Source: Flavobacteriales bacterium
GTDB lineage: Bacteria > Bacteroidota > Bacteroidia > Flavobacteriales > BACL11
Assembly: GCA_965183885.1 (NCBI GenBank)
Contig: OZ238992.1
Location: 500,197-564,196 of the forward strand
Length of the DNA: 64,000 nt
Direction of reading: 5' to 3'
Position 1 is the stretch's first letter, and every line of letters starts with the position of its first letter. Below, piece after piece: positions 2,874 to 29,365 of this stretch. Below the pieces are notes generated by a model that saw only the letters and a list, made by a program, of their open reading frames with translations, was not told the origin of the DNA and did no database searches. A program made the position numbers and the translations under genes.

Positions 2874-4457
2874 ATGATAAAAAAAATCCTATTTTTAGCT
2901 ATACTTTTAGCTTTTTCAACTTCAAATAAAGCAAATACATTAGTAAGTGATAGTACAAATAATGCTGATTTAATTGCCTATGAATGGAGTCCAATATCAG
3001 ATATAGAAAAGATTTTTCAACACGAAAACTCTAAGAAGCTTACAAAGCGCTCAATTGACCAATCTAAGCTTGCAGAACCACATTACATTGCAGCTGTTGA
3101 TTTAATGGTGAAAAAAGAATATGGAGCAGCAATAAATGAGTTTAAAAGCGCAATGAAACGCTATAAAAGAGCAAAATTAAGTGATGATGCTCTAAACTTT
3201 TTAAGAACCAATATGGCATTATGCTATGCAAACTCTGGAAACACTGAAGATCTTGCTGTAAGTAAACGATTTTTAGGACTAATTACTGTTAAAGCTTACA
3301 ATGACGTTAAGTGGGCTTACAATATTGCCATTGCACACTATCAAGTAGGAAACAATAGTGAGGCCGCTTCAGTATTAAGTGCTGCAATTAGAAAAGATGA
3401 GTTCTACTTCCAGGCATATGTAACTTTAGAAGCTATTTACAGAGCTTCAGGAAACAACAAAGATGCCGACAAAGTAATTGAAAGAATGGAAACTGCTGAA
3501 AATAAACTCTTAGCTAAAGCAGAAAAAGAAGCTAACAACAACTCAGCAAACAAACAAAAAAAGGAAAAAAGAAAGAAAAAAGGGGTTACTCCAGCACCTA
3601 AAGGAGAACGTCCAGATGTTACCAATTTACAAATTGTAACAACAGACAATCCTCTTCAATTTAATAAAATTGATAAAATTAACGAAAGAAGTATGACTCA
3701 AATCCAAGAAGGAATTGGAGAGAACAATCTTGGTTTAGAAGCCCTAAATAATAAAGAGTATGATTTAGCCCAGACTCATCTTAAAAATGCTGAAAAAAGA
3801 TTAAAAAGAGGTAAGATTACAGCTGACGGACTTAATTTCACAAGAGGTAACCTTGCTATTTCTTACTTAGCATCAGGAGAAAAAAGAGGCGTTGGACAAG
3901 CAAAAAGATATTTACGATTCCTTACAAAAAGGATCTATAAAACCAGAGAATGGACTTATAACCTAGCTGTAGCTCACTACGCATTTGCAAGCAAATCAAA
4001 AGGAACTACCAGAAAGGATTACATGGAGAAGTCAATAAAAATGTTTAAAACCTCCATGAAACTTGACCGCTTATACTTACCTGCATATCAAAATTTGATT
4101 TATGTATACAAAGAGTTAGATGATGAGAAAAATGCTTTAAGAACACACAAGTTATATGAAAGAGCCAGGAATCAGCTAATGAAATCATTCAGCAAAAAAG
4201 ATCAAATGGCACAAGGTGGAGACCCTTATATTTTCCGTCTTAACCTAGGTACTTTTGATGAATTTAATACTCCTGCTGCAATATTTGATGAAAAATCTGT
4301 AATTACAGTACCTGTTTCAGAAAAAGAAACTGCTTACTTAGCAGGATTATTCTACACTCTGGATGAAGCTGTAGCCTATCAAAAAGCAATGAAAAAGGAA
4401 GGATATACAAACTCCTTTATTGTAGCCTTTAAAGATGGAGAAAAATTAGAATTCTAA
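2874..4457 (+). CDS. Secreted TPR-like repeat protein with a Lys-rich linker and a C-terminal SPOR-like (peptidoglycan-binding) domain
   Basis: The track ORF starts at TTG 2844. ATG 2874 gives MIKKILFLAILLAFSTSNKANT, which is signal-peptide-like. There are two internally duplicated helical modules and a KQKKEKRKKKG linker. The C-terminus YIFRLNLGTFDEFN...YLAGLFYTLDEAVAYQKAMKKEGYTNSFIVAF resembles SPOR. Confidence 0.6.
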   Translation: MIKKILFLAILLAFSTSNKANTLVSDSTNNADLIAYEWSPISDIEKIFQHENSKKLTKRSIDQSKLAEPHYIAAVDLMVKKEYGAAINEFKSAMKRYKRAKLSDDALNFLRTNMALCYANSGNTEDLAVSKRFLGLITVKAYNDVKWAYNIAIAHYQVGNNSEAASVLSAAIRKDEFYFQAYVTLEAIYRASGNNKDADKVIERMETAENKLLAKAEKEANNNSANKQKKEKRKKKGVTPAPKGERPDVTNLQIVTTDNPLQFNKIDKINERSMTQIQEGIGENNLGLEALNNKEYDLAQTHLKNAEKRLKRGKITADGLNFTRGNLAISYLASGEKRGVGQAKRYLRFLTKRIYKTREWTYNLAVAHYAFASKSKGTTRKDYMEKSIKMFKTSMKLDRLYLPAYQNLIYVYKELDDEKNALRTHKLYERARNQLMKSFSKKDQMAQGGDPYIFRLNLGTFDEFNTPAAIFDEKSVITVPVSEKETAYLAGLFYTLDEAVAYQKAMKKEGYTNSFIVAFKDGEKLEF

Positions 4458-5845
4458 TAATCAGGGGCTGCAACAAAAGGAAAAGTTCTAATCCCAAATG
4501 AATACGATATAGAAGTCTGATCAATTAGGTCAGACTTTTTATTGCTATAAAAAGTAGTAAAGAAAACATCAAACCCTAAAATCTTATAAGAAATCTCAGG
4601 CTGAATAGTGCTTAAATGAGTAAGTACTCCTTGTCCATTAAAATTTCCATAGGAATATTCATCTCCATTACGCTCAGCATCAAAATCAGAAGCAAATATA
4701 TTTTGCCCAAAGTGTGTGCCTAAAGAATCTAAACCAACTAAAGCAATAGTAGCCTTTAATTTTAGCTTTAGTTTTCCTTTAGCATAACCCACAATTGTAA
4801 CTAACTCTTTAAAATTTGCCCCTAAGGGATGCGCTAAAGCATGATTTACATGAGTATAAGATTGCATAGGCTCTTTATGAGCATAAGTATAAGGTTGCGC
4901 CTGATTATACTCCAATAATGCTGTTAACATCTTATACTGCGTTTTAATCCCTAGTTGATAAGCAAATTTATTCTGAAAAAAGCCCGTTGAAAAGTTAGCA
5001 TCTCTGTCTTTTTGTCTTGCTATATTAAGGTCATCCAATAACACCTGCATATATAACATTGTTTTTTTGAAACTTACATTAAGAGAAGCTCCCATCAATA
5101 CATTATCAGGAGAATGTTTTGAAAACTCAACAGGGCGATAAAAAATAACAGGATTAAGATATTCCACATCATAAGCTCTATTATAATCTTCAGAATTAGC
5201 TTGCCAAATAACACCTTCAAAAACAGCTATATTAACATAATCCCCTACCCCAACATCCAAATAATGAATACTAGCATGTTTCTTTCTATCCATACCTTTA
5301 TCCTGAATATCTAAAAATGTTGTAAATAAGTTATAATACTTTACGCGACCAAATTCTGTCTTAACCTTTAAGTAAGGATAAGGACTTAACTCATCAGATA
5401 AAAATAACGAACGATAACCATTACCTATGAAGTGCTTTCCTTTTCCAAAACTAAGAGTGATAAACTTATTTGCCTTATAATCTAAAGCATACATCCACCT
5501 TGTATTATCTCTTCCAAACCCAGGAAGCACCCCTAAAGAATCTTTAATCTCATTTACTCTTAAACTATGCGACCCTTTTAACACATCAAAAGAAGCAGAA
5601 ACTTTTATCTTATTAGAGCGTCCTGATTTAAGAGACAAACCATATAAGAGTGTAGAATTCTTATCTTCTCTAAAACCATCACTGCTTAAAGTAGAAAATC
5701 TTAATGCACTTACATTATAAGCAGAAGAATCTACCTTAAAATCAAAACGACTATGATACTCTTTAGAAAAAAATGAAATATTACTTTGTGCGCTAGCCTG
5801 CACTAAGATAAAAAGAAATAAAATACTACTAAAAAGCGTTTTCAT
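4454..5845 (-). CDS. Wzi/RemB-like capsule-assembly outer-membrane protein
   Basis: The internal start MKTLFSSILFLFILVQASAQS is a signal peptide. The motif GKGKHFIGNGYRSLFLSDELSPYPYLKV resembles the Wzi family core. Alternating beta-strand-like composition runs throughout, and the protein ends in an aromatic residue. Confidence 0.5.
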   Translation of the reverse strand: MKTLFSSILFLFILVQASAQSNISFFSKEYHSRFDFKVDSSAYNVSALRFSTLSSDGFREDKNSTLLYGLSLKSGRSNKIKVSASFDVLKGSHSLRVNEIKDSLGVLPGFGRDNTRWMYALDYKANKFITLSFGKGKHFIGNGYRSLFLSDELSPYPYLKVKTEFGRVKYYNLFTTFLDIQDKGMDRKKHASIHYLDVGVGDYVNIAVFEGVIWQANSEDYNRAYDVEYLNPVIFYRPVEFSKHSPDNVLMGASLNVSFKKTMLYMQVLLDDLNIARQKDRDANFSTGFFQNKFAYQLGIKTQYKMLTALLEYNQAQPYTYAHKEPMQSYTHVNHALAHPLGANFKELVTIVGYAKGKLKLKLKATIALVGLDSLGTHFGQNIFASDFDAERNGDEYSYGNFNGQGVLTHLSTIQPEISYKILGFDVFFTTFYSNKKSDLIDQTSISYSFGIRTFPFVAAPDY

Positions 5846-7214
5846 CTCCCTTAAACACATTCCAAACAGTATGGAAAATAACATTAATATCTAATGAAAG
5901 CGACCAGTTCTCTATATACCAAACATCAAGACGAACACGTCCCTCCATATCTTTTAATTCTTTAGTCTCCCCTCTAAACCCTTTTACCTGGGCTGCTCCA
6001 GTAATCCCTGGCTTTACCAGTTGCCTCACCATATATTTATTAATTAATGCAGAGTACTCCTCAGTATGAGCAAGCATGTGAGGCCTTGGTCCTACAACAG
6101 ACATATCACCAAGAAAAACATTAATAAACTGCGGAAACTCATCTAAAGATGATTTTCTTAAGAATGCACCAATTTTAGTAATACGAGCATCTCCTTTGGA
6201 GGCCTGTTTAGTATCAGCATCGATACTCTGAGTCATAGACCTAAATTTATAGCACATAAACTCTTGATTATCTACTCCTGACCTAGCTTGCTTAAATAAC
6301 ACAGGACCTTTGGAGGAAATCTTAATTAACAATGCAATTATTGGGTATAACCAACTTAACACTAATACAATTACTAAAGAAGAAAATAGAATATCAAATG
6401 ATCTTTTAATAAAACGATTACTTGCATCAGTAAGTGGTTCCGCTCTTAAAGTTACTACCGGAACATCATCAAAGAAATCAATATTTACACGCTTAAAGAT
6501 AAACCCCCTAAAATCAGGAACAACCTTAAAACGTATCATATTCTTATCACAAAAAGTAACCAGACTTTTAATCTTTTGAGTATAGGTTAGTGGCATAGTA
6601 TAAAACACCTCATCAATACCATTACTAATAGCAAAGCTTTCTAAAGCATCATAATTATCTGTTTTTACACCATCCTTAATTTTAAAAGATATATCTGTAT
6701 CAGAGAAAACACCCATTACCTTCACCCCTAAAACATCATCAGAATTAAAATAAGTATACAACTGTTTTGCCACCTCTCCCCCACCAAGAATAATTACTTT
6801 CTTATAATTAAACCCTGATTTACGAAACATATAAATTAACTTAACAGCAAAATAACGCCAAAGTAAAATCAGCACAAAAAGAGTTAAATAAGTGGCATAT
6901 AAATGTTCTCTTGAAAATTCAGACGCCTTTAAAGAAAAAAGTATTGAGCTGATTATAAGCGTATTAAAAGCAAATGCCTTAAATAGATTAAACAATATCC
7001 TATCTAATCTCCTTAACCTTTTTAACTCATAAAGTTCCAACATTAATGCTACTAAAATCCAAACTGCATTAAAAATTATAAATAGAAACTTATACTTATC
7101 TGAGAAGATAAGATTGTCAAACTTTAAGTAAAATGTAATAAGGAATGCAAAATTAACTAAAAACACATCACCAATAAAGTGTACAAACCAGAAGTATCTT
7201 GAATATCCTTTCAT
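5829..7214 (-). CDS. Large polyprenyl-phosphate glycosylphosphotransferase (WbaP/WcaJ-type initiating sugar transferase)
   Basis: The N-terminus has multiple TM segments and a Rossmann-like segment (VIILGGGEVAKQL). The C-terminal bacterial sugar-transferase domain reads FDILFSS...KGPVLFKQARSG...FRSM...DEFPQF...GDMSVVGPRP. Confidence 0.85.
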   Translation of the reverse strand: MKGYSRYFWFVHFIGDVFLVNFAFLITFYLKFDNLIFSDKYKFLFIIFNAVWILVALMLELYELKRLRRLDRILFNLFKAFAFNTLIISSILFSLKASEFSREHLYATYLTLFVLILLWRYFAVKLIYMFRKSGFNYKKVIILGGGEVAKQLYTYFNSDDVLGVKVMGVFSDTDISFKIKDGVKTDNYDALESFAISNGIDEVFYTMPLTYTQKIKSLVTFCDKNMIRFKVVPDFRGFIFKRVNIDFFDDVPVVTLRAEPLTDASNRFIKRSFDILFSSLVIVLVLSWLYPIIALLIKISSKGPVLFKQARSGVDNQEFMCYKFRSMTQSIDADTKQASKGDARITKIGAFLRKSSLDEFPQFINVFLGDMSVVGPRPHMLAHTEEYSALINKYMVRQLVKPGITGAAQVKGFRGETKELKDMEGRVRLDVWYIENWSLSLDINVIFHTVWNVFKGDENAF

Positions 7215-7302
7215 ATATGAAGCAAAAATATAAAAACTAAATACTACAAAGACTTATTGAAGCAAGAAGCTTAAAGTCTTTTCAACAAGATTATTAATAC
7301 CC

Positions 7303-7986
7303 TTAATTAGAGGAGTTAAATTTATCTAGCACTAAATCATATAAAATTAAAGCAATTGCATAAGGATAATAAATAAAGTAACGCTTTATAAGCTGCGGTT
7401 CATCGTACATTCTGTAAAATGCTCTAAGTCCTAGTTTATTTATCCAGTTTGGATAATATTTTATTCCAGCAGCAGTTTGATGCAAGAAACCTCCACAAGT
7501 AAAGCCCTCTCCTTCCCAAGCTGTTGCAGAAAGATCAATAAGAAACTGCTCCTGCAAAGGAGTTCCCATTCCACAAATCACATAATCTGCTTTAAGCTCA
7601 ATTATCTCATTAAAAACTACCGTCCTTTCATCCGATGTTCTTAAATAACCATCTCTAAAACCACAAATACTTAAATCTGGAAATTGTTTTTGAATATTTT
7701 GAATTGCAACATCAATTACCTTTGGTTTTGTACCAATAAAGTATATCGTTTTATTTTTTGCTATAGCCTCACCAAATACCACAGGAGCTAAAGAAGTCAT
7801 ATCAAAACTTTTTCGGGTATACCTACTGCCAAACAAATTCAATAATTTTACCAATAAAATCCCATCAATTTCTATATTAAAATGAGCTAATTGTTTCTTA
7901 TCTTTTCTTGCTAAAAGATAAGAAAATGGATTTAAGAATGTAGTAATTCGTTTATCCTTACTTTTTGATTTAATTATTCTAATCAT
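7303..7986 (-). CDS. WecB/TagA/CpsF-family glycosyltransferase (GT26)
   Basis: Size is 227 aa. Pattern: FLNPFSYLLARK...IDGILLV...IYFIGTKPKVIDVAIQNIQKQFPDL.ICGFRDGY...GMGTPLQE. Confidence 0.7.
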   Translation of the reverse strand: MIRIIKSKSKDKRITTFLNPFSYLLARKDKKQLAHFNIEIDGILLVKLLNLFGSRYTRKSFDMTSLAPVVFGEAIAKNKTIYFIGTKPKVIDVAIQNIQKQFPDLSICGFRDGYLRTSDERTVVFNEIIELKADYVICGMGTPLQEQFLIDLSATAWEGEGFTCGGFLHQTAAGIKYYPNWINKLGLRAFYRMYDEPQLIKRYFIYYPYAIALILYDLVLDKFNSSN

Positions 7987-9179
7987 AATACCTGTTCAAC
8001 TTCATTAACAATAATTTTTACTGATTCATTAGCATTTGGCTGAAAAAAATGAGCTATACTTATATTTTCTTTTTCTTTAGTTGAGAAAATATGTTCCAAC
8101 AGCTGATCCGTACTAAATGCCTTAATAAATAAATCATTATTAATAAAACTATTTTTAAACCTCCAATATTGATTATCTAAAAACAAGAATATTACTTTTT
8201 TCCCTATAGACATTGCCTCCAAAAGCACAGTAGAATTAACGCCAATAACAATGTCCTTTTCTTTTATCGATTTGTAAACATCAACTGATTTATCCTCCAG
8301 TGTAACCCAATTAAGATCAGGGACATAACTATAGTTTTTAATATCATCCCTAGGATGGATTCTAATTGTCAAGTGAATATCTGACACCTGTTCCTTAGCT
8401 AGCTTCTCTAACAAGATTTTTATTGTTTTATGCTGCAATCTATCATTCTCAAACTCATTATGCCATATATAACCTTGCGTGACATATAAGAGCTGTTTTT
8501 TATTACTCTTAACAGCCTCCACTTTATTTAAGAACCTGTACCTAGGCATACCACTTTTTACAAGCTTAACCTTTCGTATTATTTGCTTATTAATATGCGA
8601 AGCAACATAATCACTTATAACAAATATCTTTGACAATCTACTACAACCTACATCACTAGGTAATAAATAATTATACGGCAAAAAAGCAAATATTTTATTT
8701 AACCCCTTTTTAAAGATTCTTCTAAAATAATCTTTAACATCAAACATCTTATTCTCAGAATGTCTTATAACATCCTTTAGTGAGAATGAATAATCTGATA
8801 TTATTCCATCTAATATAAGTAAATGACTCTTATCTTTAAATTTATCAATAATAACTCTTTGCAAAGCCCCATCATTACCATAAATAAAAGCGTCAAAAGT
8901 ATTAAGGTTGTAATCTTTTATCACATCCTTAAATTGCATTAAGAATTTTATTTTCTCAACAAATGACAAATAAGCAAAAGCAGTCTTTAAACTCAAAGAA
9001 AGCTTTATAACATCAAACTTAAAGTCACTTTCATAAATATATTGATTATAAACCTCTGAAGTATCAAAAAAGAACACTTTATACCCTTTTAAAGACAATT
9101 GCTCCGCAACAGGTATCATATTATCAATATGAGTTTTATTTTGTGGGAAGAATAGAATCTTCTTGTTCCTTTTTTGCAT
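7983..9179 (-). CDS. GT-B-like transferase with an HP motif (TagF-type glycerophosphotransferase-like or bacterial sialyl/NulO-transferase-like)
   Basis: KKILFFPQN..H...MIPVAEQL at the N-terminus; LLYVTQGYIWHNE; LTIRIHPRDD; DIVIGVNSTVLLEAMSIGKKVIFL. The specific family cannot be resolved by eye. Confidence 0.4.
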   Translation of the reverse strand: MQKRNKKILFFPQNKTHIDNMIPVAEQLSLKGYKVFFFDTSEVYNQYIYESDFKFDVIKLSLSLKTAFAYLSFVEKIKFLMQFKDVIKDYNLNTFDAFIYGNDGALQRVIIDKFKDKSHLLILDGIISDYSFSLKDVIRHSENKMFDVKDYFRRIFKKGLNKIFAFLPYNYLLPSDVGCSRLSKIFVISDYVASHINKQIIRKVKLVKSGMPRYRFLNKVEAVKSNKKQLLYVTQGYIWHNEFENDRLQHKTIKILLEKLAKEQVSDIHLTIRIHPRDDIKNYSYVPDLNWVTLEDKSVDVYKSIKEKDIVIGVNSTVLLEAMSIGKKVIFLFLDNQYWRFKNSFINNDLFIKAFSTDQLLEHIFSTKEKENISIAHFFQPNANESVKIIVNEVEQVL

Positions 9180-10353
9180 AAAAATAAGATAACATTATAA
9201 ATATTAATAATTCCGATTGGTAAAAATAGTGCGCATTTTCTAAAAAACCAATAACCTCTATCCCAAAAAATAAAACAAACACTAACTTCACTATTTTTTG
9301 ATCCCTCAATGAGCTTCTTAAAATAGTCATAGTGACTTTATATTGATAGTATAGATATAGTATTAATCCCAAAATACCACCTTCAACCAACATTAACAAG
9401 TAATCATTATGCGCAGCTACACCACTTTCTCCAGTAGCATGAAAAAAGAATTCATTAAACCCTCCTAAACCAATACCAATTAAGAAATCTGAAACACTTA
9501 AATTAATAATCGATTGCTGAATAATAAACACCCTATACATAGAAGAAGCATCTAGTTCGCTTACTAAAAATAATTCTTTCATTCTTGGCAGAAGATCAGT
9601 ATAAAGCACAACTAAAACAAATAACACTCCAAATAGAAGACTAAAAACTAAATAAGATATCTTTACTAATAAACGCTTATTTAAATAAAAGTTAATAAAT
9701 AAATTTGCAAGAAATAATGCAATTAAGAGCAATCTAGAATGAGATAGAATGAAAATCCAGAATAATAAAATAAGCATTATAAACCTTAATAAGTTAAGTT
9801 TATTAAATGACACGTATTGCAAGTAGGTAATAAGAACAAAAGCAGATAAGGCAAAACCTAAATGATGGTCCGTAAAATTTCCTGCAACCCTATAGGCTCC
9901 ATTTACAAACCTTACACTTCCTGAAAGCAACTCATAGAATCCTGAAAACACAATAATAGATGACAACACCATTACCACTAAGGATACAGATGAAAGCTTT
10001 ATGTTATTACTTTTAAAACCTAAATAGAAAATGGTAAATGTTGTAATATATAATAAATATCTACTAAAGGTAGGTAGCCACTCAACCGGAGAATTTAATA
10101 AGATGGAAACAATGGACTGTAGCATAAAAATTAACCCCACAATTTTAAAAGTGCTTGACCAACTCATTCTTTGATGCATTACCGCATATAATATTACTAT
10201 AAATATCATATTAACTATTAACAAAGAAAAATAAACTGTAAAATTAATTATTCGTTCCTCAACAGCTATTAAATCAGCAAAAGGGTAAGCAAAAAAACTT
10301 AACACCCATATAATAGAGAAAAAATAAAAATGAACTTTATGTAAGCTTTTCAT
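9136..10353 (-). CDS. wzy: O-antigen polymerase/ligase-family membrane protein (Wzy-like)
   Basis: About 10-12 TM segments. A periplasmic-loop motif HATGESGVAAHNDYLLMLVEGGILG is typical of the Wzy_C/O-antigen ligase family. Confidence 0.65.
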   Translation of the reverse strand: MKSLHKVHFYFFSIIWVLSFFAYPFADLIAVEERIINFTVYFSLLIVNMIFIVILYAVMHQRMSWSSTFKIVGLIFMLQSIVSILLNSPVEWLPTFSRYLLYITTFTIFYLGFKSNNIKLSSVSLVVMVLSSIIVFSGFYELLSGSVRFVNGAYRVAGNFTDHHLGFALSAFVLITYLQYVSFNKLNLLRFIMLILLFWIFILSHSRLLLIALFLANLFINFYLNKRLLVKISYLVFSLLFGVLFVLVVLYTDLLPRMKELFLVSELDASSMYRVFIIQQSIINLSVSDFLIGIGLGGFNEFFFHATGESGVAAHNDYLLMLVEGGILGLILYLYYQYKVTMTILRSSLRDQKIVKLVFVLFFGIEVIGFLENAHYFYQSELLIFIMLSYFYAKKEQEDSILPTK

Positions 10354-11593
10354 ATAAAAGAGTCCAGGGCATTTTATAGTACTTATTTTGATACCAGAAT
10401 ACCATCACAGCACTAACTGAAAATGATAATACTGTAGCATATGCAGCTCCAATAGCACCATACCAATTAATAAAAATATAATTAAATAGTAAATTTAAAA
10501 TTGCTGCAACAAAAGTACTAATTCCTAAAAAGGAGGTTTTATTTAAGTGCACTAAATAAGGAAATAATATTTTATACACTCCATGTACTGCATATCCAAT
10601 TGCAATCCAGAACACATATATTTCTGCTCCTTCATACCTTACATTTACAACATAAGGAATAATTAATTTTGCAATTACCGAGATCAAAAAAGCTATTAAG
10701 AATATTGCTATAATATATAAGTAACTATATTTTACAATACGCTTTTTCTTTTTTGCATCTGGGTCAGATAACATCCTATAAAACCAAGGTGACCATGCCT
10801 TTATAAAGGCATCCGTAAACAATACCACTACCATCCCAAACATATACCCAACAGAATAAATTCCAACCATTTCTAAACTTATCATTCTTTCAATAAAAAA
10901 ACGATCACTTAAACCAATAATAATACCCCCAACAACATGAGGAATTAAAGGGATAGATAAATTAAGTACTTTCCTAAGCTCTACTTTATCAAACTTAAAT
11001 GTTACATACCCATTCCTATGCATATAAGCTAATGATATAAAAAAGAAAAGTGTATAAGCTGTAAGAATTCCTAAAGCCTGAGAGTACCAACCATAATTAT
11101 AAAATAATAACAATACTATAGTAACCCCCATATTCACAGCAGTATTTACCACCTCAAATGCTCCAAAAAGCAACGCTTTCTCTTCATTCCTCAATAGTGT
11201 TAAGTTAAGTGTATTTACCATAAACATAAAACTTATTACAGGAATAACCATTACCCAATTTGAGGGCACTGAAAACAAATTATCATACCATAGCGATGTA
11301 AGAAAAGTTATCCCTAAAGCTAAAGAAGCTGTTATAGTAAGAATGAATAATATATTAGCAATTAAAACAGAAAGCTGCTTTTTAGTATAATTGAAAAAAT
11401 TCTTAGAGATATTAGTATGCATAGCCATACCAATAAATGCTGAGTAAAAAGCAATCATCAACTGGAAAATCGCTAATACTCCATATTCTTCAGGAGATAG
11501 ATATTCAGTTAGCAATGGCAATAACAAAAAAGGTATTGCCTTATTTAGAACACTACTCCCTAAGTATATAATTGAACTTTTAATTAGTTGCAA
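10337..11593 (-). CDS. wzx: Oligosaccharide flippase (Wzx, MOP superfamily)
   Basis: The N-terminus reads SSIIYLGSSVLNKAIPFLLLPLLTEYLSPEEYGVLAIFQ. There are about 12 TM segments, and the gene sits in a polysaccharide-locus context. Confidence 0.7.
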   Translation of the reverse strand: MQLIKSSIIYLGSSVLNKAIPFLLLPLLTEYLSPEEYGVLAIFQLMIAFYSAFIGMAMHTNISKNFFNYTKKQLSVLIANILFILTITASLALGITFLTSLWYDNLFSVPSNWVMVIPVISFMFMVNTLNLTLLRNEEKALLFGAFEVVNTAVNMGVTIVLLLFYNYGWYSQALGILTAYTLFFFISLAYMHRNGYVTFKFDKVELRKVLNLSIPLIPHVVGGIIIGLSDRFFIERMISLEMVGIYSVGYMFGMVVVLFTDAFIKAWSPWFYRMLSDPDAKKKKRIVKYSYLYIIAIFLIAFLISVIAKLIIPYVVNVRYEGAEIYVFWIAIGYAVHGVYKILFPYLVHLNKTSFLGISTFVAAILNLLFNYIFINWYGAIGAAYATVLSFSVSAVMVFWYQNKYYKMPWTLLYEKLT

Positions 11594-12233: not shown

Positions 12234-12237
12234 AACA

Positions 12238-16060: not shown

Positions 16061-16062
16061 GT

Positions 16063-17037: not shown

Positions 17038-17056
17038 TCTGCAAATCTAGCAACTA

Positions 17057-20621: not shown

Positions 20622-21370
20622 TACAATCTTCTTTTAATAGCATTAAAAGCATAAGAAACAAAACAATACAAGCTATAAAACAATGACAATTGTTCTATTT
20701 CTCTATACACCTTCCAAACCCCTAAAGTTGCCTTTATCTTATTTGAAGTATTTGAGGTTGAAACTAGACGATACTTTGCTAACACCTTATTTAAACCATA
20801 AGCCTTAACTCCGGTTCTCATTATCTTTAACCAAAGCGCCATATCCTGAGAAGATCTTACATTAGGCATTTCAACATCACTAATTTTATTTCTATCTAGA
20901 ATCACTGTTAAACAGCCAATAGCAGTATTCTTTAAATAAGATTGATACCCCATACTCTTAGGGGCTCTTATTACATTATATTCTTTAGTATCATCCTCAG
21001 AAATACGAATATAAGCAGTATAAGAGAATGCTATACTACCTTCCTCCATAAACTTTAGTTGCTCCTCTAATTTATTTGACACCCACATATCATCACTATC
21101 TAAGAAAGCAATAAAACGTCCCTTTGCGCTTTTAATAGCAAGGTTTCTTGCTGTAGCAGGACCAACATTATTGGTTAAGAAAATTGGCTTTATTCTATCA
21201 TCATTACTAACTAATTCTTTAATTAGAGCAACTGAATTATCTTTTGAACAATCATCTACAATAAGCAATTCCCAATTCTCATAGGTCTGATTTACTACTG
21301 ACTGAATACAAGAAGCAATAAATTTCTCAGAATTATACGAGGGGGTTATTATGGAAACTAAGCTATTCAT
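20621..21370 (-). CDS. Family 2 glycosyltransferase
   Basis: VSIITPSYNSEKFIASCIQSVVNQTYENWELLIVDDCSKDNS; DSDD motif (FLDSDDMW). Confidence 0.85.
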   Translation of the reverse strand: MNSLVSIITPSYNSEKFIASCIQSVVNQTYENWELLIVDDCSKDNSVALIKELVSNDDRIKPIFLTNNVGPATARNLAIKSAKGRFIAFLDSDDMWVSNKLEEQLKFMEEGSIAFSYTAYIRISEDDTKEYNVIRAPKSMGYQSYLKNTAIGCLTVILDRNKISDVEMPNVRSSQDMALWLKIMRTGVKAYGLNKVLAKYRLVSTSNTSNKIKATLGVWKVYREIEQLSLFYSLYCFVSYAFNAIKRRL

Positions 21371-21860
21371 CTCTCAATAATTTATAAACCCCTAAAAAAT
21401 CACTTTTCCTTCCTTCTGAAATTTTCTTAAAGCCTGCTTTCTCAATCCCTTTTACACTTGGGATATTATTCTTTCTTGTTCCTATCCAAATATCACTACC
21501 CTTTTTATGCTCAATAATTTTTGAGAGAGCAAACGGATACAAATTATTACCTCTAAACTTTAGATTTGTTTGGCAATTTACTATATGAAAATCACCTTTT
21601 TTCATAAATGGAAACTTAAATATCTTTGGCAAAACATTTGAATAATGAGCAATCTCTCCAGTCTCTTTATCTTCTATATAAAAAATTAACATCTTACTCT
21701 TAGAAAATAAAAACCAAAACATATACAATAATAAAGAATCATTATGTAGCTTCAGTTCCCCAAGACTGGGTTTAAAAAAATAATATTTAAACTTATCATC
21801 AATCTTAATAGATGGACTACCACTATTTAAATAAAACATAAGCTCTCCCTCTTTATTCAT
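21363..21860 (-). CDS. GNAT-like N-acetyltransferase
   Basis: FRGNNLYPFALSKIIEHKK...IGTRKNNIPSVKGIEKAGFKKI resembles GNAT motif A/B. The start is set at internal M19 (MNKEG), 8 nt overlapping the upstream stop. The track ORF extends to 21914. Confidence 0.5.
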   Translation of the reverse strand: MNKEGELMFYLNSGSPSIKIDDKFKYYFFKPSLGELKLHNDSLLLYMFWFLFSKSKMLIFYIEDKETGEIAHYSNVLPKIFKFPFMKKGDFHIVNCQTNLKFRGNNLYPFALSKIIEHKKGSDIWIGTRKNNIPSVKGIEKAGFKKISEGRKSDFLGVYKLLRDE

Positions 21861-22665
21861 AGCTTCTTCTAATTTCTTCTTGAGACAAAATTGCCGTAAC
21901 TCTCTGTGGAACAATAAATTTCATTTTTTTTAATAAACTTTTAAAAGGATAAAGCAATCTAACTACTAATTGAATGAATGGGGCATAAGTAACATGCAGC
22001 TGACAATATGCTTTTCTAAACTTAAACTTTCTTATGTATTCCTTCTGAATATTTGTTTCATGCAGTATACTTTTTGTCCCTCCACAAACATATTTTAATT
22101 TCAATTCATTTAAGTAATAGTCAGTCATAGTATAAAACAAAACATCACTCATTCTTAATTTTAAATAATCTGGATGAAATTTAGTTGTTGAATAATCACA
22201 GAAACCTTCTCTAAGTCTATTTTGACTATATCCAATAAGCTTACCTTCATTATTAAAAACTCCCCAAAAATCCCAATTTCCTAACAAAGTATTAATCTCT
22301 CCAGTAAATTGAGCTTTTGTTTTCATAGAATGTTTATTAATATATCTTTTAAAAGCGCTTTCATACACTTCATATCCATCCTTAATAATCACTTCTGAAG
22401 AAACAAGCCTTACGTCTACATTTTTCAGTCCTTTTCTAATACTTTTTCTAGTATTACTACTTAACTCTTCAAGCCCATCACATTTATCTTTTATAATATA
22501 CCAAAAGTCAGTTTCCTCTGTACAATCAAAATTAGATGTCCATCTAGCGAAAAAAGCATTATTATTAACAATTAACTCCTTAATTTCTTTTTCCGAAGTA
22601 AGCACTTCAACATGAGGAGCTGACAAAGGAATCATTGCACTATTATATTTTCTCCAATTTATCAT
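21853..22665 (-). CDS. FemAB-like/Acetyltransf_6-like (GNAT-fold) protein of unknown acceptor
   Basis: 270 aa. ..SSNTRKSIRKGLKNVDVRLV.., ..WGVFNNEGKLIGYSQN.. The architecture is reminiscent of the FemX/CelD-like families. This is a weak call made by eye. Confidence 0.35.
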   Translation of the reverse strand: MINWRKYNSAMIPLSAPHVEVLTSEKEIKELIVNNNAFFARWTSNFDCTEETDFWYIIKDKCDGLEELSSNTRKSIRKGLKNVDVRLVSSEVIIKDGYEVYESAFKRYINKHSMKTKAQFTGEINTLLGNWDFWGVFNNEGKLIGYSQNRLREGFCDYSTTKFHPDYLKLRMSDVLFYTMTDYYLNELKLKYVCGGTKSILHETNIQKEYIRKFKFRKAYCQLHVTYAPFIQLVVRLLYPFKSLLKKMKFIVPQRVTAILSQEEIRRSYE

Positions 22666-23663
22666 AAAAAAGAACGACTTAAAAACCTTAATGAACTAGC
22701 AAAAAACAATACAGGAAGACTAAATATCAACAATAGGGCTACCCTGAGCATTCTCCTTTTTAAACTAGTAACTGTTAAAGAATATTTATATAGATCAAAT
22801 ATTAAAAACACAATAAACAGCATACCTAAACGCTCTGCAATCATATCAACTTCCAGATTAACTAACCCCATAAGCAATATAATACTAAATAATAAAGATG
22901 GAATTGTTTGGAATATATTAAGTATGTTATCCTTGTATTTTATTAGTGCTATAACCAGAATTACACAAAAAATTAATAAATATACATAACCCATATTTAG
23001 AACTGTAGGCTTTGCTGATTTAAGCATTGCTAGCAAACTTAACGAAGACACATACAGAATAGAAAGTGAAATAGAAATAGTAACTCTATCTTTTAACTGA
23101 AATTTAAAGAATCGTTTTATAATAAATATTGGCATTAATAAAATCACAATATTATGAATAAATACTCCACAAATAAATAACATTATTGATTTCTTATAAT
23201 CTGTCTCAACTATAGCATATGAGTATAATATTACAATAGTTGCAAAAAACTGCCTATATATATTCTCATACCCAAAGAAAAAAGGAAAAGTAGTAAGTAG
23301 TATTATAAATAAACCTTTTTTAAATTTCTGACCTTTTAACATTACTGAATCCTGAACTCTAAGTAGTAAATATATCCATACAAAATCAAGAATAATAAAT
23401 GCTAATTGATCTGACTTTACTATAAAATAAATAATTCTTAGAGAGAACCAATATATAAACTCTCTCAAATAATAAATATCAAAAGATGTTGCTCTCATCT
23501 CTTTTGCATAAGTCACAATATCATAATCATAACCTGAAGTTCTTACTACAATCATAAAAAGGAATGTTAATGGCAGGTACAACCATTTAAACATATTATT
23601 GCTCTCAATAAGCAATGTAAACAAACCTAATACAATTAAAGATATAAATATAATAAACTCCAT
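22662..23663 (-). CDS. EpsG-family membrane protein (second putative polysaccharide polymerase)
   Basis: About 9-10 TM segments. The N-terminal ..VRTSGYDYDIVTYAKEM.. resembles the EpsG signature. It sits next to a flippase. Confidence 0.5.
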   Translation of the reverse strand: MEFIIFISLIVLGLFTLLIESNNMFKWLYLPLTFLFMIVVRTSGYDYDIVTYAKEMRATSFDIYYLREFIYWFSLRIIYFIVKSDQLAFIILDFVWIYLLLRVQDSVMLKGQKFKKGLFIILLTTFPFFFGYENIYRQFFATIVILYSYAIVETDYKKSIMLFICGVFIHNIVILLMPIFIIKRFFKFQLKDRVTISISLSILYVSSLSLLAMLKSAKPTVLNMGYVYLLIFCVILVIALIKYKDNILNIFQTIPSLLFSIILLMGLVNLEVDMIAERLGMLFIVFLIFDLYKYSLTVTSLKRRMLRVALLLIFSLPVLFFASSLRFLSRSFL

Positions 23664-23666
23664 TCC

Positions 23667-24959: not shown

Positions 24960-24960
24960 C

Positions 24961-26286
24961 TTAAACTACTTTCACTCCTATCTGAAGATATTTAAAACCT
25001 TTATCTCTCATAAACTGACTATCAAATTGATTCCTACCATCAATAAAAATATTTCCAAGCATCTTATTTTTAATTACTTCAAAGTCTGGACTTCTAAATT
25101 CTTTCCACTCAGTCACTAAGATAGCAGCGTCTACATTCTCTAAAGCCTCATATTTATCACTACAATAATTTACATCAATACCTTTTAAATAGTGTTGTGC
25201 TTCAGCTATTGCTTTTGGGTCATAAGCATTAACTTTCCCTCCAGAATTAACTATCGACCGAATTAGATTTATTGATGGTGCTTCTCTCATATCATCAGTT
25301 TCAGGTTTAAAAGACAAGCCCCAAACTCCAAAAGTTTTCCCTTCTAGATTTGCTCCAAATTGACTAACAATTTTACCAAATAAAATATTCTTCTGAGCTT
25401 TATTAACTTGTTCAACAGATGATATTAATTCAGGGTTATAACCATGATTATTTGCAATATTAATTAAAGCCTGAACATCCTTAGGAAAGCAACTTCCCCC
25501 ATAACCACAACCTGGATAAATAAATTGATAACCTATTCGCTTATCACTACCTATTCCTGTACGAACTTGATTAACATCTGCACCTACATGTTCACAAATA
25601 TTTGCTATCTCATTAATGAATGATATTTTTGTAGCCAACATTGCATTAGCGGCATACTTAGTCATCTCAGCTGACCTAATATCCATTCCTATAAACCTAT
25701 CATGATTTAATGTAAATGGAGCATATAAAGCTCGCATAGTACTTAAAGCAGTTTCATCATCAGCTCCAACAACTACTCTATCTGGATGCATAAAATCTTT
25801 TATTGCCGCCCCTTCTTTTAAAAATTCAGGATTAGAAACAACATTAAAAGACAATGAAGAATTCCTTTTATCTAAAGCAGTTTGTATTGTTTGCTGAACC
25901 TTATCAGCCGTACCAATAGGAACAGTCGACTTATCAACCACAACAATAGGATGAACCATTTTCTCTCCTATAGACTGAGCAACTGCTAAAACATATTTTA
26001 AATCAGCAGAACCATCCTCACCCATTGGAGTTCCAACTGCAATAAAAACTACTTCAGCTACTTTAAGAGCTTCACTAATATTAGTAGTAAACTGAAGATT
26101 TCCTTTTGAGTAATTATCCTTTACTAATTGATCCAAACCAGGCTCATATATAGGAATAATTCCATTTTTTAATCCTTCTATTTTCTTAGCATCTACATCT
26201 ACGCAAATAACACTATTTCCCATTTCTGCAAAACAAGCGGCTGCGACTAAACCAACATAACCAGACCCTATAATTCCTACTTTCAT
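24961..26286 (-). CDS. ugd: UDP-glucose 6-dehydrogenase
   Basis: MKVGIIGSGYVGLVAAACFAEMGN..., ...GYGGSCFPKDV...; 441 aa. Confidence 0.9.
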   Translation of the reverse strand: MKVGIIGSGYVGLVAAACFAEMGNSVICVDVDAKKIEGLKNGIIPIYEPGLDQLVKDNYSKGNLQFTTNISEALKVAEVVFIAVGTPMGEDGSADLKYVLAVAQSIGEKMVHPIVVVDKSTVPIGTADKVQQTIQTALDKRNSSLSFNVVSNPEFLKEGAAIKDFMHPDRVVVGADDETALSTMRALYAPFTLNHDRFIGMDIRSAEMTKYAANAMLATKISFINEIANICEHVGADVNQVRTGIGSDKRIGYQFIYPGCGYGGSCFPKDVQALINIANNHGYNPELISSVEQVNKAQKNILFGKIVSQFGANLEGKTFGVWGLSFKPETDDMREAPSINLIRSIVNSGGKVNAYDPKAIAEAQHYLKGIDVNYCSDKYEALENVDAAILVTEWKEFRSPDFEVIKNKMLGNIFIDGRNQFDSQFMRDKGFKYLQIGVKVV

Positions 26287-26289
26287 AAA

Positions 26290-27141
26290 TTACTCTTTAA
26301 TCATATTTTGACGTACATTTCTAAATACTGCAATAATAATTGAAATAATAAAAGAGATTATACCTGCCAATGAAGCTAACATCAACACTCCTCTTTCCGC
26401 AACCTGTGTTACAGTAAAATTTTGAACAAAAGCTAAAGGTTTTAATAATTTTTGATTAGTCTCATTTACTGATCTCATTTGAACCAATTCAACTATCTGA
26501 TTTTGGACATCTGAAACTCCTTTCCTGGAAAGAATACTTGTAGAGCTCATATTTAGTTGAGCATCTGAAGCCCCTCTTAAAGTTTTAAGCTCTATAACTT
26601 CTTTATTAATCTCTTCTATTACCTGATTATTTGTAGCTAAATAATTCTCATAGAAGCTTTTTATATAATCATTATTATTAAAGTAATAAAATAATCCACT
26701 CTCAACAGCTGAAATAACCTCATTATTCTTAACAATAAGGTTTATTTCAAATTTTGGAGTATTAAACTTTTTCCCTTCTTGACCTTCTCTATAAATTTGT
26801 TCTGCTTTTATATCTTTTATTAAAGCAGCTTCTTCTTCTAAGATATTTAATCTATTAGCTACAGCAAGGTAATCCTCTTTTTTTACATATGCTTGCAAAT
26901 TATTAATCAAATTAATTGCTGTTCTTTGGTTCATTACCTCTCTATCATCCTGAATTCTTTCAAATACTGAAATTCCTGACGTAGCAATAGCAGTAGTCTT
27001 ATAAAATGCCGGTTTAGTTTTCTGAAATACAATAGCAAGAAGCATCCCTGCAATAGTCACAGAGATGATTAACTTCCAAAACTTAATAAAGAATAGGATT
27101 ACTTCATTAATAATTTCTCTTAAACTTAATTCTTCATTCAT
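26290..27141 (-). CDS. Short chain-length-determinant (Wzz/PCP-like) protein with no kinase domain
   Basis: An N-terminal TM (FWKLIISVTIAGMLLAIVF), a coiled central part, and a C-terminal TM (GVLMLASLAGIISFIISIIIAVF). Confidence 0.55.
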   Translation of the reverse strand: MNEELSLREIINEVILFFIKFWKLIISVTIAGMLLAIVFQKTKPAFYKTTAIATSGISVFERIQDDREVMNQRTAINLINNLQAYVKKEDYLAVANRLNILEEEAALIKDIKAEQIYREGQEGKKFNTPKFEINLIVKNNEVISAVESGLFYYFNNNDYIKSFYENYLATNNQVIEEINKEVIELKTLRGASDAQLNMSSTSILSRKGVSDVQNQIVELVQMRSVNETNQKLLKPLAFVQNFTVTQVAERGVLMLASLAGIISFIISIIIAVFRNVRQNMIKE

Positions 27142-27159
27142 ATTTTTAGTTTTATTTTT

Positions 27160-28406
27160 TTAGAGTTTCCAGGTAGATTCTTTATAAATCCCTTTAATGT
27201 CCAAAAGTACCAATTTTTCTTTTGATAGCTGAATAAAATCTGCAGGAGTATAAGTAAGAAACTCATCGTGACCCACTGTTACAATTATAGCATCGTATTT
27301 AAGCTCATCACTAATAGGGTTTGAAATAAAATCCAACCCTTCAGAATCTTTAACATAAGGTCATAAATACTTACATTACAGGAGAACTCCTGTAGTCCTT
27401 TTGCAATTTGTGTAACTTTAGTATTTCTAGTATCTGAACAGTTTTCTTTAAACGTATAACCCAATAACAAAACATCTGCACCTTTTATTACCTTATTTTC
27501 CGCAATCATTAATTTAATTGCTTTATTTACAATAAAATTAGCTACACTATTATTTATCTTCCTTGAAGAAAGCATTAAATTTGGCTTATAACCTAACTCT
27601 GCTGACTTAAAAGTTAAATAATAAGGATCTACTCCTATACAATGCCCTCCAACCAAACCTGGTTTAAAGTCTAAGAAATTCCATTTAGTTCTTGCCGCAG
27701 CTAAGACCTCCGAAGTATCTACACCCATTCTATCAAACAACATTGCCAACTCATTTATCAATGCTATATTAACATCCCTCTGAGTATTCTCAACAACCTT
27801 AGCTGCTTCTGCCACCTTAATACTAGGAGCTTTATAAGTTCCTGCGTCAATTACCTTGCCATATAAGCTATCTACAACATCAGCAATCACAGGGGTAGAA
27901 CCACTAGTAACCTTTATAACATTTTGCAAGCTATACTCCTTTGCTCCAGGACTAATTCGCTCCGGACTATATCCACAATAAAAATCAATATTATATCTAA
28001 GCTTTGAACACTCTTCTAGTATAGGAACACAAATCTCCTCGGTCACTCCTGGATACACAGTAGATTCATAAATTACAACATCTCCTTTTTGTAAGTATTT
28101 AGCAATAAGTTCAGAGGCAACCTTAAGAAATGATAAGTCAGGAAGGTTATCTTTAGTGACAGGGGTTGGAACAGTTACAATATAAATATTTGCCTCTGCA
28201 ATATCCTCAGCATTAGCTGAGAACACTAAGCTATCATTCTCAAACAAACTAGTTTCAAGGTTGCTATCAACACCTTTTTGAAGATCAGCAATTCTCAAAG
28301 TATTAACATCATAACCGACAACACTATAATGTTTTGAAAAAGCTAAGGCTAATGGTAAACCAACATAACCTAAACCAATTATTGCTATTTTATTTTCTAT
28401 TGCCAT
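27160..28406 (-). pseudogene. UDP-N-acetyl-hexosamine (ManNAc/GalNAc) dehydrogenase, WbpO/Cap5O/VipA family, interrupted by a 1-nt frameshift near 27358-27362
   Basis: MAIENKIAIIGLGYVGLPLALAF... The track ORF ends in an aberrant tail ..IYDLMLKILKGWILFQTLLVMSLNTML*. The adjacent frame continues with the family-typical YVKDSEGLDFISNPISDELKYDAIIVTVGHDEFLTYTPADFIQLSKEKLVLLDIKGIYKESTWKL* (stop at 27160-27162). GACCTT where GACCCTT would restore ..YDPYVKD.. Confidence 0.75.
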
Positions 28407-28411
28407 AAAGT

Positions 28412-28433: not shown

Positions 28434-28460
28434 CTAATAATTAAATCAAATCTCTTTGGA

Positions 28461-29360: not shown

Positions 29361-29365
29361 AATTT

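Follow-up and report, generated by a model that had tools for sequence, protein, structure and literature searches.

Described systems related to the locus

The closest precedent for two polysaccharide gene clusters in tandem is known from Escherichia coli and Salmonella, where the Wzx/Wzy clusters wca (colanic acid) and rfb (O-antigen) are placed head to tail on one strand. The annotated order in E. coli K-12 is wca-galF-rfb-gnd-ugd-wzzB (region wza to wzzB), and the O-antigen of this strain is initiated by WecA, which is encoded elsewhere. Here we examine a comparable locus of about 24 kb in 64,000 nucleotides of DNA from a Flavobacteriales bacterium (GenBank assembly GCA_965183885.1, contig OZ238992.1, positions 500,197 to 564,196), a stretch called the window in the following. 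It consists of module A (4454-17037) and module B (17057-28406). The wca cluster resembles module A in WcaJ, WzxC, WcaD, the pyruvyl and acetyl transferases and gmd-fcl, the last being found next to wcaJ in three relatives of the window locus. Like module B, the rfb cluster has its own flippase (RfbX) and polymerase (WbbH), and is flanked by gnd, ugd and wzzB. In contrast to the E. coli tandem, no counterpart of the colanic acid proteins Wza-Wzb-Wzc was found in the scanned part of the window, and module B carries its own PglC-type phosphoglycosyl transferase (PGT) and a flippase of the MurJ family, not of the PST family. Gene order also differs, and the proteins are not orthologous.

Partial similarity extends to several other systems. 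The PglF-type dehydratase, DegT aminotransferase and small monotopic PGT of the Campylobacter pgl module (PglF, PglE, PglD, PglC) have adjacent and conserved counterparts in module B. This module, however, has a conserved FemX-like protein instead of a PglD-type or hexapeptide N-acetyltransferase, and it is predicted to feed a Wzy-polymerised glycan and not an oligosaccharyltransferase pathway. Pseudaminic and legionaminic acid clusters share with module A a synthase of the NeuB family, a CMP-transferase and a hydrolase domain resembling PseG, but all three score below equivalog level here, PseF and PseG are fused, and module A has no dedicated PseB/LegB or PseC/LegC. Group 1 capsule systems comprise Wzi, Wza, Wzb and Wzc; neither a Wza translocon nor a Wzc tyrosine kinase was found in the scanned open reading frames (ORFs) of the locus and its flanks. 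Within Bacteroidota, the O-LPS/A-LPS system of Porphyromonas gingivalis combines two PGT-initiated units, an amino-acid-substituted sugar produced via a GNAT-type transferase, and a link to the secretion system of type IX (T9SS) (PMC7468200, PMC13086638). Its genes are widely scattered in the genome, as seen from their locus tags, and a single Wzy is proposed (PMC7468200, PMC13086638). Set against the Wbp/Vim pathway of that species (WbpA, WbpB, WbpE, WbpD, VimE, VimA), the locus has just a TviB/WbpO-like dehydrogenase with a frameshift, an aminotransferase of the DegT family and one protein of FemX fold.

Organization of the locus

ORF calling revealed an unbroken run of minus-strand ORFs between 4454 and 28406. 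An earlier note, made from the sequence by eye, had listed 23 co-directional genes; strand and continuity of the run are as it described, while the count is 22, including one frameshifted ORF. The mostly overlapping or abutting gene ends it mentioned are evident at 18 of 21 internal junctions, where ORFs overlap or are at most 4 nt apart. The three largest internal gaps span 88 nt (7215-7302), 40 nt (27142-27181, if the dehydrogenase gene is taken to end where it does after repair of the frameshift) and 19 nt (17038-17056). The locus is bracketed by the gldKLMN gliding/T9SS genes on one side and a convergent TPR gene on the other.

Families were assigned by scans with Pfam and NCBIfam/TIGRFAM models against their gathering or equivalog cut-offs, and transmembrane segments were counted. 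As anticipated by eye, two initiating transferases (WcaJ and a small PglC type), two flippases of the MOP superfamily and two polymerase-type proteins (Wzy_C and EpsG) are present. We interpret the whole, with a probability of about 0.72, as a lineage-conserved two-module locus for Wzx/Wzy-dependent surface polysaccharides, located between gldKLMN and the convergent TPR gene.

Genes of module B, beginning next to gldN:
27160..28406 (3' end approximate), minus strand: TviB/WbpO-like UDP-N-acetylhexosamine 6-dehydrogenase, frameshifted, first gene after gldN
26290..27141, minus strand: Wzz-like chain-length determinant of PCP-1 topology, two transmembrane segments (residues 21-39 and 252-270)
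24961..26286, minus strand: UDP-glucose 6-dehydrogenase Ugd, with all three Pfam UDPG_MGDP_dh domains, 534 bits on the TuaD model and 469 bits on TIGR03026
23667..24959, minus strand: putative module B flippase (flippase 2), a short divergent MurJ/MVF-family MOP protein of 430 aa with at least 10 transmembrane segments, assigned by profile bridging
22662..23663, minus strand: EpsG-type polymerase candidate of module B, 8 transmembrane segments
21853..22665, minus strand: FemX-like double-GNAT protein, 270 aa, assigned by structure prediction and Foldseek
21363..21860, minus strand: small accessory protein of ~165 aa, no family match
20621..21370, minus strand: TuaG-like GT2 glycosyltransferase (Pfam Glycos_transf_2 E = 3.5e-39; TuaG model 335 bits, cut-off 400)
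20034..20621, minus strand: module B initiating transferase, a small monotopic PglC-type PGT of 195 aa with one transmembrane segment (Pfam Bac_transf E = 4.8e-58, 196 bits)
18900..20033, minus strand: sugar aminotransferase of DegT/PglE/LegC type (Pfam DegT_DnrJ_EryC1 E = 3e-96; TIGR04181 LegC family 408 bits, cut-off 420)
17057..18910, minus strand: membrane-anchored UDP-HexNAc 4,6-dehydratase of PglF/CapD type, last gene of module B (Pfam Polysacc_synt_2 E = 3.6e-116, CoA_binding_3, 4 transmembrane segments)

Genes of module A, beginning at the boundary with module B:
16063..17037, minus strand: glycerol-3-phosphate dehydrogenase, GpsA-like, which opens module A and is conserved (both the N- and the C-terminal domain of Pfam NAD_Gly3P_dh match)
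14432..16060, minus strand: fusion of a PseF-like CMP-nonulosonate cytidylyltransferase and a PseG-like UDP-sugar hydrolase (Pfam CTP_transf_3, Glyco_tran_28_C)
13380..14435, minus strand: nonulosonic acid synthase of the NeuB/PseI family (Pfam NeuB E = 5e-75, SAF domain)
12238..13380, minus strand: polysaccharide pyruvyl transferase (Pfam PS_pyruv_trans E = 3e-22)
11580..12233, minus strand: hexapeptide-repeat acetyltransferase (Pfam Hexapep; in NCBIfam closest to Vat/CatB-type O-acetyltransferases, with no match reaching its cut-off)
10337..11593, minus strand: module A flippase Wzx of the PST family, 10 transmembrane segments (Pfam Polysacc_synt E = 1e-16, 61 bits, cut-off 28; Polysacc_synt_3)
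9136..10353, minus strand: module A polymerase candidate with a Wzy_C domain and 10 transmembrane segments (Pfam Wzy_C E = 2.4e-14, 54 bits, cut-off 32)
7983..9179, minus strand: candidate soluble glycosyltransferase, cassette-specific (weak matches to the BFO_1060 glycosyltransferase family, E = 5e-6, 26 bits, and to Capsule_synth, E = 0.005)
7303..7986, minus strand: WecG/TagA/CpsF-family glycosyltransferase (Pfam Glyco_tran_WecG E = 4e-32), 61-70% identical in four relatives
5829..7214, minus strand: module A initiating transferase, a large polytopic WcaJ-type undecaprenyl-phosphate glucose phosphotransferase (TIGR03023 470.5 bits, cut-off 410.75)
4454..5884, minus strand: conserved outer-membrane beta-barrel protein (OMP) with a signal-peptide-like N-terminus, no family match

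Conservation of the two modules and exchange of their centres

To find related loci, species-representative genomes were scanned with the GpsA-like protein. This search returned 12 loci (designated here by L numbers), 11 of which belong to metagenome-assembled genomes (MAGs) of uncultured marine Flavobacteriales, Cryomorphaceae or Bacteroidota; window proteins were mapped onto them and ORFs were called. The comparison revealed a recurring gene order. In module B, gldN is followed by an optional dehydrogenase, Wzz-like, Ugd, flippase 2, a polymerase-type protein, FemX-like, optional accessory genes, GT2, PglC, aminotransferase and PglF. Module A continues with GpsA-like, a variable segment of 5-8 kb, WecG, optional gmd-fcl, WcaJ and OMP, and ends at the convergent TPR gene. 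Both PGTs are present in each of the six loci that extend far enough (L002, L004, L005, L006, L007 and L010), and the triad of PglF, aminotransferase and PglC is kept in all relatives. The presence of both PGTs and the recurrent order in relatives argue that the two-module design is ancestral to this lineage of marine Flavobacteriales. The description of two units as “fused” is accordingly misleading, the layout being common to about ten species and not peculiar to this genome. The unit boundary placed after PglF proved to be a real module boundary in related genomes, and we add that the GpsA-like gene sits exactly on it. Likewise, the conserved flanks expected on the gldN and TPR sides were found.

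Outer genes of each module are conserved, while the centres, comprising flippase, polymerase and tailoring genes, are exchanged or lost between species, in line with the hypervariable centres suggested for both units. Identity to window proteins amounts to 81-86% for GldN, 67-81% for PglF, 77-80% for WcaJ and 64-78% for the GpsA-like protein, and to 41-61% for flippase 2, 41-50% for the FemX-like protein and 48-61% for the OMP. The Wzy_C protein of the window and the neighbouring glycosyltransferase (7983-9179) have no homolog (blastp E < 1) in the 11 related loci, while the genes on both sides are 61-80% identical in relatives. At least six kinds of module A centre exist among the 11 MAG loci of the lineage. 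The window and L012 share the nonulosonate/pyruvyl centre, which L006 has inserted between PglF and GpsA. L008 and L009 have another centre that is nonulosonate-like, a glycerol-phosphate (TagF) centre is present in L004, L005, L006 and L010, and three further kinds occur in L001, L002 and L007. Relatives also differ in module B, with two polymerase types and varying accessory genes. The EpsG-type protein is replaced by a protein of 11-12 transmembrane segments in five relatives, and in L004 the replacing protein was confirmed by Pfam as Wzy_C. Module A of the same locus contains, according to Pfam, a GpsA-cytidylyltransferase fusion, a Polysacc_synt flippase, a TagF-like glycerophosphotransferase, Wzy_C, WecG and WcaJ; that of L002 contains Polysacc_synt and Wzy_C. 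In L005, L007 and L010, each module appears to have its own flippase and polymerase, as judged by protein size and transmembrane counts.

In L006, a nonulosonate/pyruvyl/Wzx cassette (4660-9763), 48-76% identical to that of the window, is present besides a full TagF-type module A, giving this locus three flippase-like genes.

Traces of gene loss are located upstream of wcaJ. Both gmd and fcl occupy this position in L002 (18015-20205), L005 (15854-18047) and L006 (16159-18358), and they are lost in the window, L004, L007 and L010. The 88-nt gap of the window retains shared sequence in the alignment:
7215..7302, minus strand: remnant of the 3' end of fcl (GDP-fucose synthase), upstream of wcaJ
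The Smith-Waterman score of this segment against the fcl end of L002 is 30, compared to 16.2 +/- 2.5 for shuffled sequences (0 of 500 reach it). Clearer fcl remnants are found in L004, L007 and L010.

Enzymes of module B and module A

The TviB/WbpO-like dehydrogenase, the first gene after gldN, was not named in the earlier note, whose other domain labels mostly match our assignments. Its proposed first start codon at 28406 is borne out, as a longer ORF with a TTG start at 28424 would enter the terminator after gldN. The gene has a 1-nt deletion in a C-run at ~27359-27360, and with one C restored the protein is intact (415 aa) and reaches 486 bits with model NF011729, whose cut-off is 592, and 361 bits with TIGR03026, whose cut-off is 190. 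In the unrestored sequence, the N-terminal and central UDPG_MGDP_dh domains of Pfam match, and the C-terminal domain is truncated and continues in another frame. Either a pseudogene or a sequencing or assembly error would explain this. Among relatives, the gene is present in L002, and just a remnant of its 3' end is left in L005. The Wzz-like protein has a weak match to Pfam Wzz (E = 0.003, 18 bits, cut-off 25.5), and its orthologs, with identity of 38-58%, hold the same position in relatives. Fragments similar to ugd lie between the Wzz-like gene and the flippase in L007 (1348-1554) and L010 (1408-1605), indicating that ugd was lost there.

Regarding module A, the GpsA-like protein falls under every NCBIfam GpsA cut-off. 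In L004 (10001-11365), Pfam shows the GpsA-like protein joined to a cytidylyltransferase-like domain, with a TagF-like glycerophosphotransferase encoded next, which points to a polymer with glycerol-phosphate; L005, L006 and L010 have GpsA-like ORFs of similarly increased length (452-454 aa). The window copy, unfused and without a TagF partner, may be a leftover anchor gene or the only gpsA of the cell. The fusion protein at 14432-16060 reaches 108 bits on PseF (cut-off 206) and 116 bits on PseG (cut-off 154), and the NeuB-family synthase 335 bits on TIGR03569 (cut-off 400) and 259 bits on PseI (cut-off 340). The candidate glycosyltransferase at 7983-9179 is possibly the nonulosonate transferase. 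The WcaJ-type PGT is composed of Pfam Bac_transf and CoA_binding_3 domains and has five transmembrane segments.

For the OMP, which is 468 aa long in the public gene call, AlphaFold2 produced a low-confidence model (pLDDT 58) of a large barrel with many long beta hairpins. Foldseek matches of this pLDDT 58 model were OprD, Wzi (2ynk, rank 2, TM-score 0.37) and AlgE, with TM-scores of about 0.4, and the Pfam Wzi model matches two of 28 orthologs (best E = 3e-4). The earlier label “Wzi-like” therefore denotes no more than a possibility for this beta-barrel OMP, and is weakly supported. For the OMP, flippase 2, the EpsG-type and Wzy_C proteins and the glycosyltransferase at 7983-9179, solved structures searched by sequence yielded no usable match, and neither did they for the FemX-like protein, where only chance matches to barnase came up.

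The FemX-like protein and its small neighbour

The protein encoded at 21853-22665 matches no Pfam (FemAB included) or NCBIfam model. Its AlphaFold2 model (pLDDT 91.9) shows a double-GNAT fold, and the top Foldseek matches are FemX of Weissella, aminoacyl-tRNA-dependent peptide synthases and the synthase domain of MprF, with E from 6e-8 and TM-scores of 0.55-0.60. At the level of fold, the label “FemAB-like” given by eye therefore holds. The likeness to FemABX transferases lies in this fold and in the best matches, FemX, MprF synthase domains and other aminoacyl-tRNA-dependent transferases. It differs from them in sequence (~10% identity), in length (270 aa here and ~335 aa in FemX) and in its context, which is polysaccharide and not peptidoglycan. 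The protein is kept in nine relatives with identity of 41-50%. Based on the model, we predict that it is probably an aminoacyl transferase acting on an amino sugar.

The small accessory protein next to it has orthologs in L001 and L004 only. Its sole profile match in PDB is the GNAT protein PaiA (E = 0.27), and it is possibly a GNAT as well. A Pfam sulfotransferase occupies its slot in L007, and 262-aa ORFs of like size and position are found in L010 and L012. An alternative in which the 270-aa protein (unk270) and its neighbour (unk183) form one frameshifted FemAB gene was rejected, given that unk270 stands alone in some relatives and beside different genes in others. The public gene call agrees, and P0128, a homolog of 469 aa, consists of unk270-like parts in tandem and is no fusion of the two.

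Proposed biosynthetic pathways

From the gene content observed in the window we infer the following order of reactions and the named sugars. Module B resembles an O-antigen unit. PglF and the DegT aminotransferase would produce a UDP-4-amino-4,6-dideoxy-HexNAc, and the FemX-like enzyme would probably aminoacylate this sugar, a step proposed because no PglD is present. The small PglC-type transferase would load the sugar onto undecaprenyl phosphate, and the GT2 enzyme would extend the unit, with Ugd as a supplier of UDP-GlcA. Export of the unit is ascribed to the divergent MurJ-family flippase, polymerisation to the EpsG-type protein, and control of chain length to the Wzz-like protein.

Module A resembles a unit for an acidic exopolysaccharide or capsule of the colanic-acid kind. 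Its WcaJ-type transferase would start the unit with glucose-1-phosphate, and the WecG-family and cassette-specific glycosyltransferases would extend it. Decoration with nonulosonic acid, pyruvate and acetate is predicted, followed by flipping by the PST-family Wzx and polymerisation by the Wzy_C protein; the beta-barrel OMP is encoded at the 3' end. Exchange of module centres would then lead to species-specific glycans.

Several observations weigh against this interpretation of two Wzx/Wzy modules. No 4,6-dehydratase or aminotransferase for the nonulosonate pathway is encoded in module A (4454-17037), the nearest being PglF and the aminotransferase of module B. The modules may therefore not be independent, and module A nonulosonate genes probably use these two enzymes, which would link the modules metabolically. 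Wza, Wzc or identifiable WaaL domains were not found among locus genes and scanned flanking ORFs of the window (dcw-like ORFs at 46286-59689 being outside the scan), so that either polymer may be LPS-linked, capsular or free. For both reasons, and because the Wzi-like assignment is weakly supported, calling the units “complete” was too strong. The dehydrogenase at the head of module B is frameshifted. The EpsG-type protein matches Pfam EpsG in full length but below the cut-off (24 bits against 30.1); five of five orthologs match this model (best E = 1.2e-9), and polymerase activity of EpsG-family proteins is itself an annotation. Pfam Wzy_C also spans O-antigen ligases and O-oligosaccharyltransferases, so that the polymerase role of the protein at 9136-10353 is proposed on the basis of its cassette-specific variability. 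Finally, flippase 2 has no Pfam match of its own, and its profile compared with PST flippases reaches a probability of only 17%, with the N-lobe aligned to the C-lobe. For this reason, the idea of two flippases as close paralogs was dropped, and bridging through MurJ proteins was used instead.

Putative flippase of module B and its relation to MurJ

Among 254 homologs of flippase 2 none has a Pfam domain, and its profile matches just 126 clusters (at 50% identity) among 1.84 billion representatives, almost none of them with a Pfam domain, the closest source-named homologs being from marine Flavobacteriales or Bacteroidetes. Distant full-length matches of the profile (500-545 aa) are genuine Pfam MurJ proteins with 220-340 bits, and the intermediate 432-aa homolog P0379 passes the Pfam MurJ gathering score. 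The alignment of the profile to MurJ is collinear over ~320-400 of 424 positions. By these alignments, flippase 2 is assigned to the MurJ/MVF branch of the MOP superfamily, as a short divergent member, and not to the PST branch. Its orthologs occupy the same position in nine relatives.

This affiliation raises the alternative that the locus holds one true Wzx/Wzy unit, in which the MurJ-like protein serves the cell as lipid II flippase in a housekeeping role, the Wzy_C protein acts as an O-antigen ligase or an O-oligosaccharyltransferase, or both. We consider it unlikely. In its favour, the profile reaches genuine MurJ proteins, annotators at JGI call homologs “putative lipid II flippase”, and Pfam describes PF04932 as “O-Antigen ligase”. 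Residues R18, R24, R52 and R270 are known from mutational studies as cavity residues of MurJ (E. coli numbering), and in the alignment flippase 2 keeps the equivalents of R18 (as K) and R24, with K or R conserved at the former. Against it, equivalents of the other two are non-basic in every aligned member of the family, R52 being A, S or other and R270 being I, V or other. The numbering follows an E. coli MurJ sequence that was checked only by its 34% identity to a protein with 340 bits on Pfam MurJ. Moreover, the score on the MurJ equivalog TIGR01695 is 19.7 bits and far from the cut-off of 235.55, and flippase 2 has ~430 aa compared to ~510-540 aa. Orthologs of flippase 2 are just 41-61% identical where gldN and PglF reach 81-86% and 67-81%, and the gene is invariably placed with ugd on one side and the variable polymerase on the other. 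Taken together, this fixed place, the short and fast-diverging sequence and the low MurJ score make the role of a polysaccharide-unit flippase the likelier one, as far as can be judged from the 64-kb window. As for the Wzy_C protein, its cassette specificity and the lack of homologs in the 11 relatives would be unexpected for a ligase that recognises a conserved core, and relatives carry one such protein per module. The earlier note had itself named a true MurJ or a ligase as what would overturn its proposal. The proposal does not come through this check unscathed: flippase 2 turned out to be a MurJ-family protein that is clearly not canonical MurJ, and Pfam Wzy_C does not separate polymerases from ligases.

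Possible links between the modules and T9SS

In another reading, the two undecaprenyl-linked units end in a single molecule, one of them as a cap, linker or adaptor on the polymer of the other. A model for this exists in P. gingivalis, where a WbaP-initiated linker with an aminoacylated uronic sugar is joined to a WbaQ-initiated O-polysaccharide and anchors T9SS cargo, the system including two paralogous PGTs and the amino-acid-transferring VimA (PMC7468200, PMC13086638). The locus also has two PGTs, a conserved FemX-like enzyme, uronic-acid dehydrogenases and a DegT aminotransferase, and in several species it is positioned directly downstream of porP-gldKLMN. However, each module has its own polymerase-type protein here and in relatives, and a single-copy linker would need none. 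Domain scans of the locus found no VimE-type or other deacetylase, no WbpB-type oxidoreductase and no WbpD-type acetyltransferase. The FemX-like protein, which has no NCBIfam or Pfam match, would be comparable to VimA in its predicted role, and a strong terminator parts gldN from the locus. One composite glycan is thus improbable, and two separate surface polysaccharides remain our preferred interpretation.

A related proposal is that module B supplies a glycolipid anchor or linker for T9SS-secreted surface proteins, with the aminoacylated sugar offering a free amine for attachment of cargo. It is suggested by the location of the module right after porP-gldKLMN together with the conserved FemX-like enzyme, the uronic-acid dehydrogenases and the unusual MurJ-family flippase, and we regard it as quite unlikely. 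If true, it would represent a T9SS linker comparable in function to the linking sugar (seryl/glycyl) known from P. gingivalis and T. forsythia, but made by unrelated enzymes encoded beside secretion genes.

Base composition

Composition of nine central genes was compared with that of 30 genes outside the locus (Mann-Whitney test). Overall GC content is 0.284 in the central genes and 0.333 outside (p = 1e-5), and GC at codon positions 1 and 2 (GC12) is 0.317 and 0.393, respectively (p = 2.5e-5). At the third position (GC3) the values are 0.217 and 0.214 (p = 0.6), and at 4-fold sites 0.170 and 0.129 (p = 0.016). The AT-richness of the centres noticed by eye is therefore real, but its reading as a sign of horizontal origin is not sustained. 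Because the drop is confined to codon positions 1 and 2 and GC3 is unchanged, composition provides no evidence that the genes are foreign. In ftsW-like and mraY-like ORFs, membrane genes with housekeeping roles that lie outside the locus, GC12 is 0.37-0.38, so membrane character alone is not the cause of the drop. The low GC12 of the centres agrees with glycan genes that evolve fast and are weakly expressed, the genome being AT-rich.

It is very improbable that this genome underwent a recent fusion or import, by which an AT-rich cassette of foreign origin, or an entire second unit, came to lie beside a resident one. The lower GC of central genes, the slight difference at 4-fold sites and the window Wzy_C and glycosyltransferase genes, unique among relatives, would agree with it, but GC3 inside the locus equals that outside, mobile-element genes, tRNA-like borders and long non-coding gaps are all missing from the locus, exchange concerns cassette centres and not the whole unit, and the same boundary in about ten species largely refutes the whole-unit version.

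Transcription signals

Two kinds of signal were located at module borders. The motif TAnnTTTG corresponds to the Bacteroidetes -7 consensus, the main promoter element in the phylum (Bacteroides, Flavobacterium).
28413..28435, minus strand: intrinsic terminator directly after gldN, with a 10-bp stem of 5 G-C pairs followed by a T-run
27202..27209, minus strand: TAnnTTTG box, candidate module B promoter, 60 nt ahead of the gene for the Wzz-like protein
17042..17049, minus strand: TAGATTTG box, at the junction of the modules and 4 nt ahead of the GpsA-like ATG, candidate module A promoter
7223..7230, minus strand: TATTTTTG box, 8 nt before the ATG of wcaJ, within the fcl remnant

The terminator is the strongest such site in 20000-38500, lies ~7 nt ahead of the first start codon of the locus, and separates gldKLMN from the polysaccharide genes. 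A similar hairpin is present 3' of gldN in L007.

TAnnTTTG is not enriched throughout the window (98 found, 109 expected), and only its conservation across species at three gene starts therefore carries weight. At the junction, 11 of 12 species show the TAnnTTTG columns with little or no variation, while the intergenic columns beside them vary. The box before wcaJ is kept in seven of seven species, and that before the Wzz-like gene in four of five, at a distance of 52-60 nt (52-54 nt in L002, L005 and L010); in L005 it falls inside the remnant of the dehydrogenase 3' end. From these conserved positions we infer separate promoters for module B, module A and wcaJ-OMP, and transcription as one array, as had been assumed, is doubtful. 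Spacing of 4-8 nt (GpsA-like, wcaJ, gldB) would result in leaderless or nearly leaderless mRNAs, the 4-nt spacing implying a transcription start at the AUG. The gldB box at 62540-62547 has the same 4-nt spacing to ATG as the GpsA-like box. A scan with a sigma-70 promoter model was discarded, as its counts were no higher than in shuffled sequence and the model is unsuited to this phylum.

Flanking regions

Upstream of the locus and on the same strand are gldN, gldM, gldL, a gene for a GldK-type FGE-sulfatase protein, porP/sprF, an arginase-family gene and topA. At the opposite end, the OMP gene on the minus strand and the TPR gene on the plus strand have stop codons that overlap at 4454-4457, leaving no space for a terminator between them; abutting stops of these genes are also seen in L004, L007 and L010. 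The remaining part of the window (37845-63352) has housekeeping character, with genes for a MiaB-like radical SAM enzyme, a sigma-54 activator, LptE, SecG, FtsZ, an alpha/beta hydrolase, a GTPase, GldB, NAD synthase and, presumably, GroEL. FtsZ is followed by a long co-directional cluster that resembles dcw genes. No polysaccharide export genes were found in this part, dcw-like ORFs at 46286-59689 being outside the domain scan.

Significance of the two-module locus

The locus is of a known kind and involves no new mechanism, and the understanding of such pathways is not changed by these findings. Two of its proteins may merit biochemical work: the members of a narrow family of short MurJ-like flippases, apparently dedicated to a polysaccharide unit, and the conserved FemX-fold enzyme, which predicts an amino-acid-substituted sugar. 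The conserved anchors, gldN, PglF, GpsA-like, wcaJ and the OMP gene, could be used to recover diversity of glycan types from metagenomes. If the proposed interpretation is true, abundant marine Flavobacteriales with small genomes keep a fixed glycan site with two slots, the contents of both being swapped between species, and such swapping is the pattern usually expected from pressure of phages and grazers.

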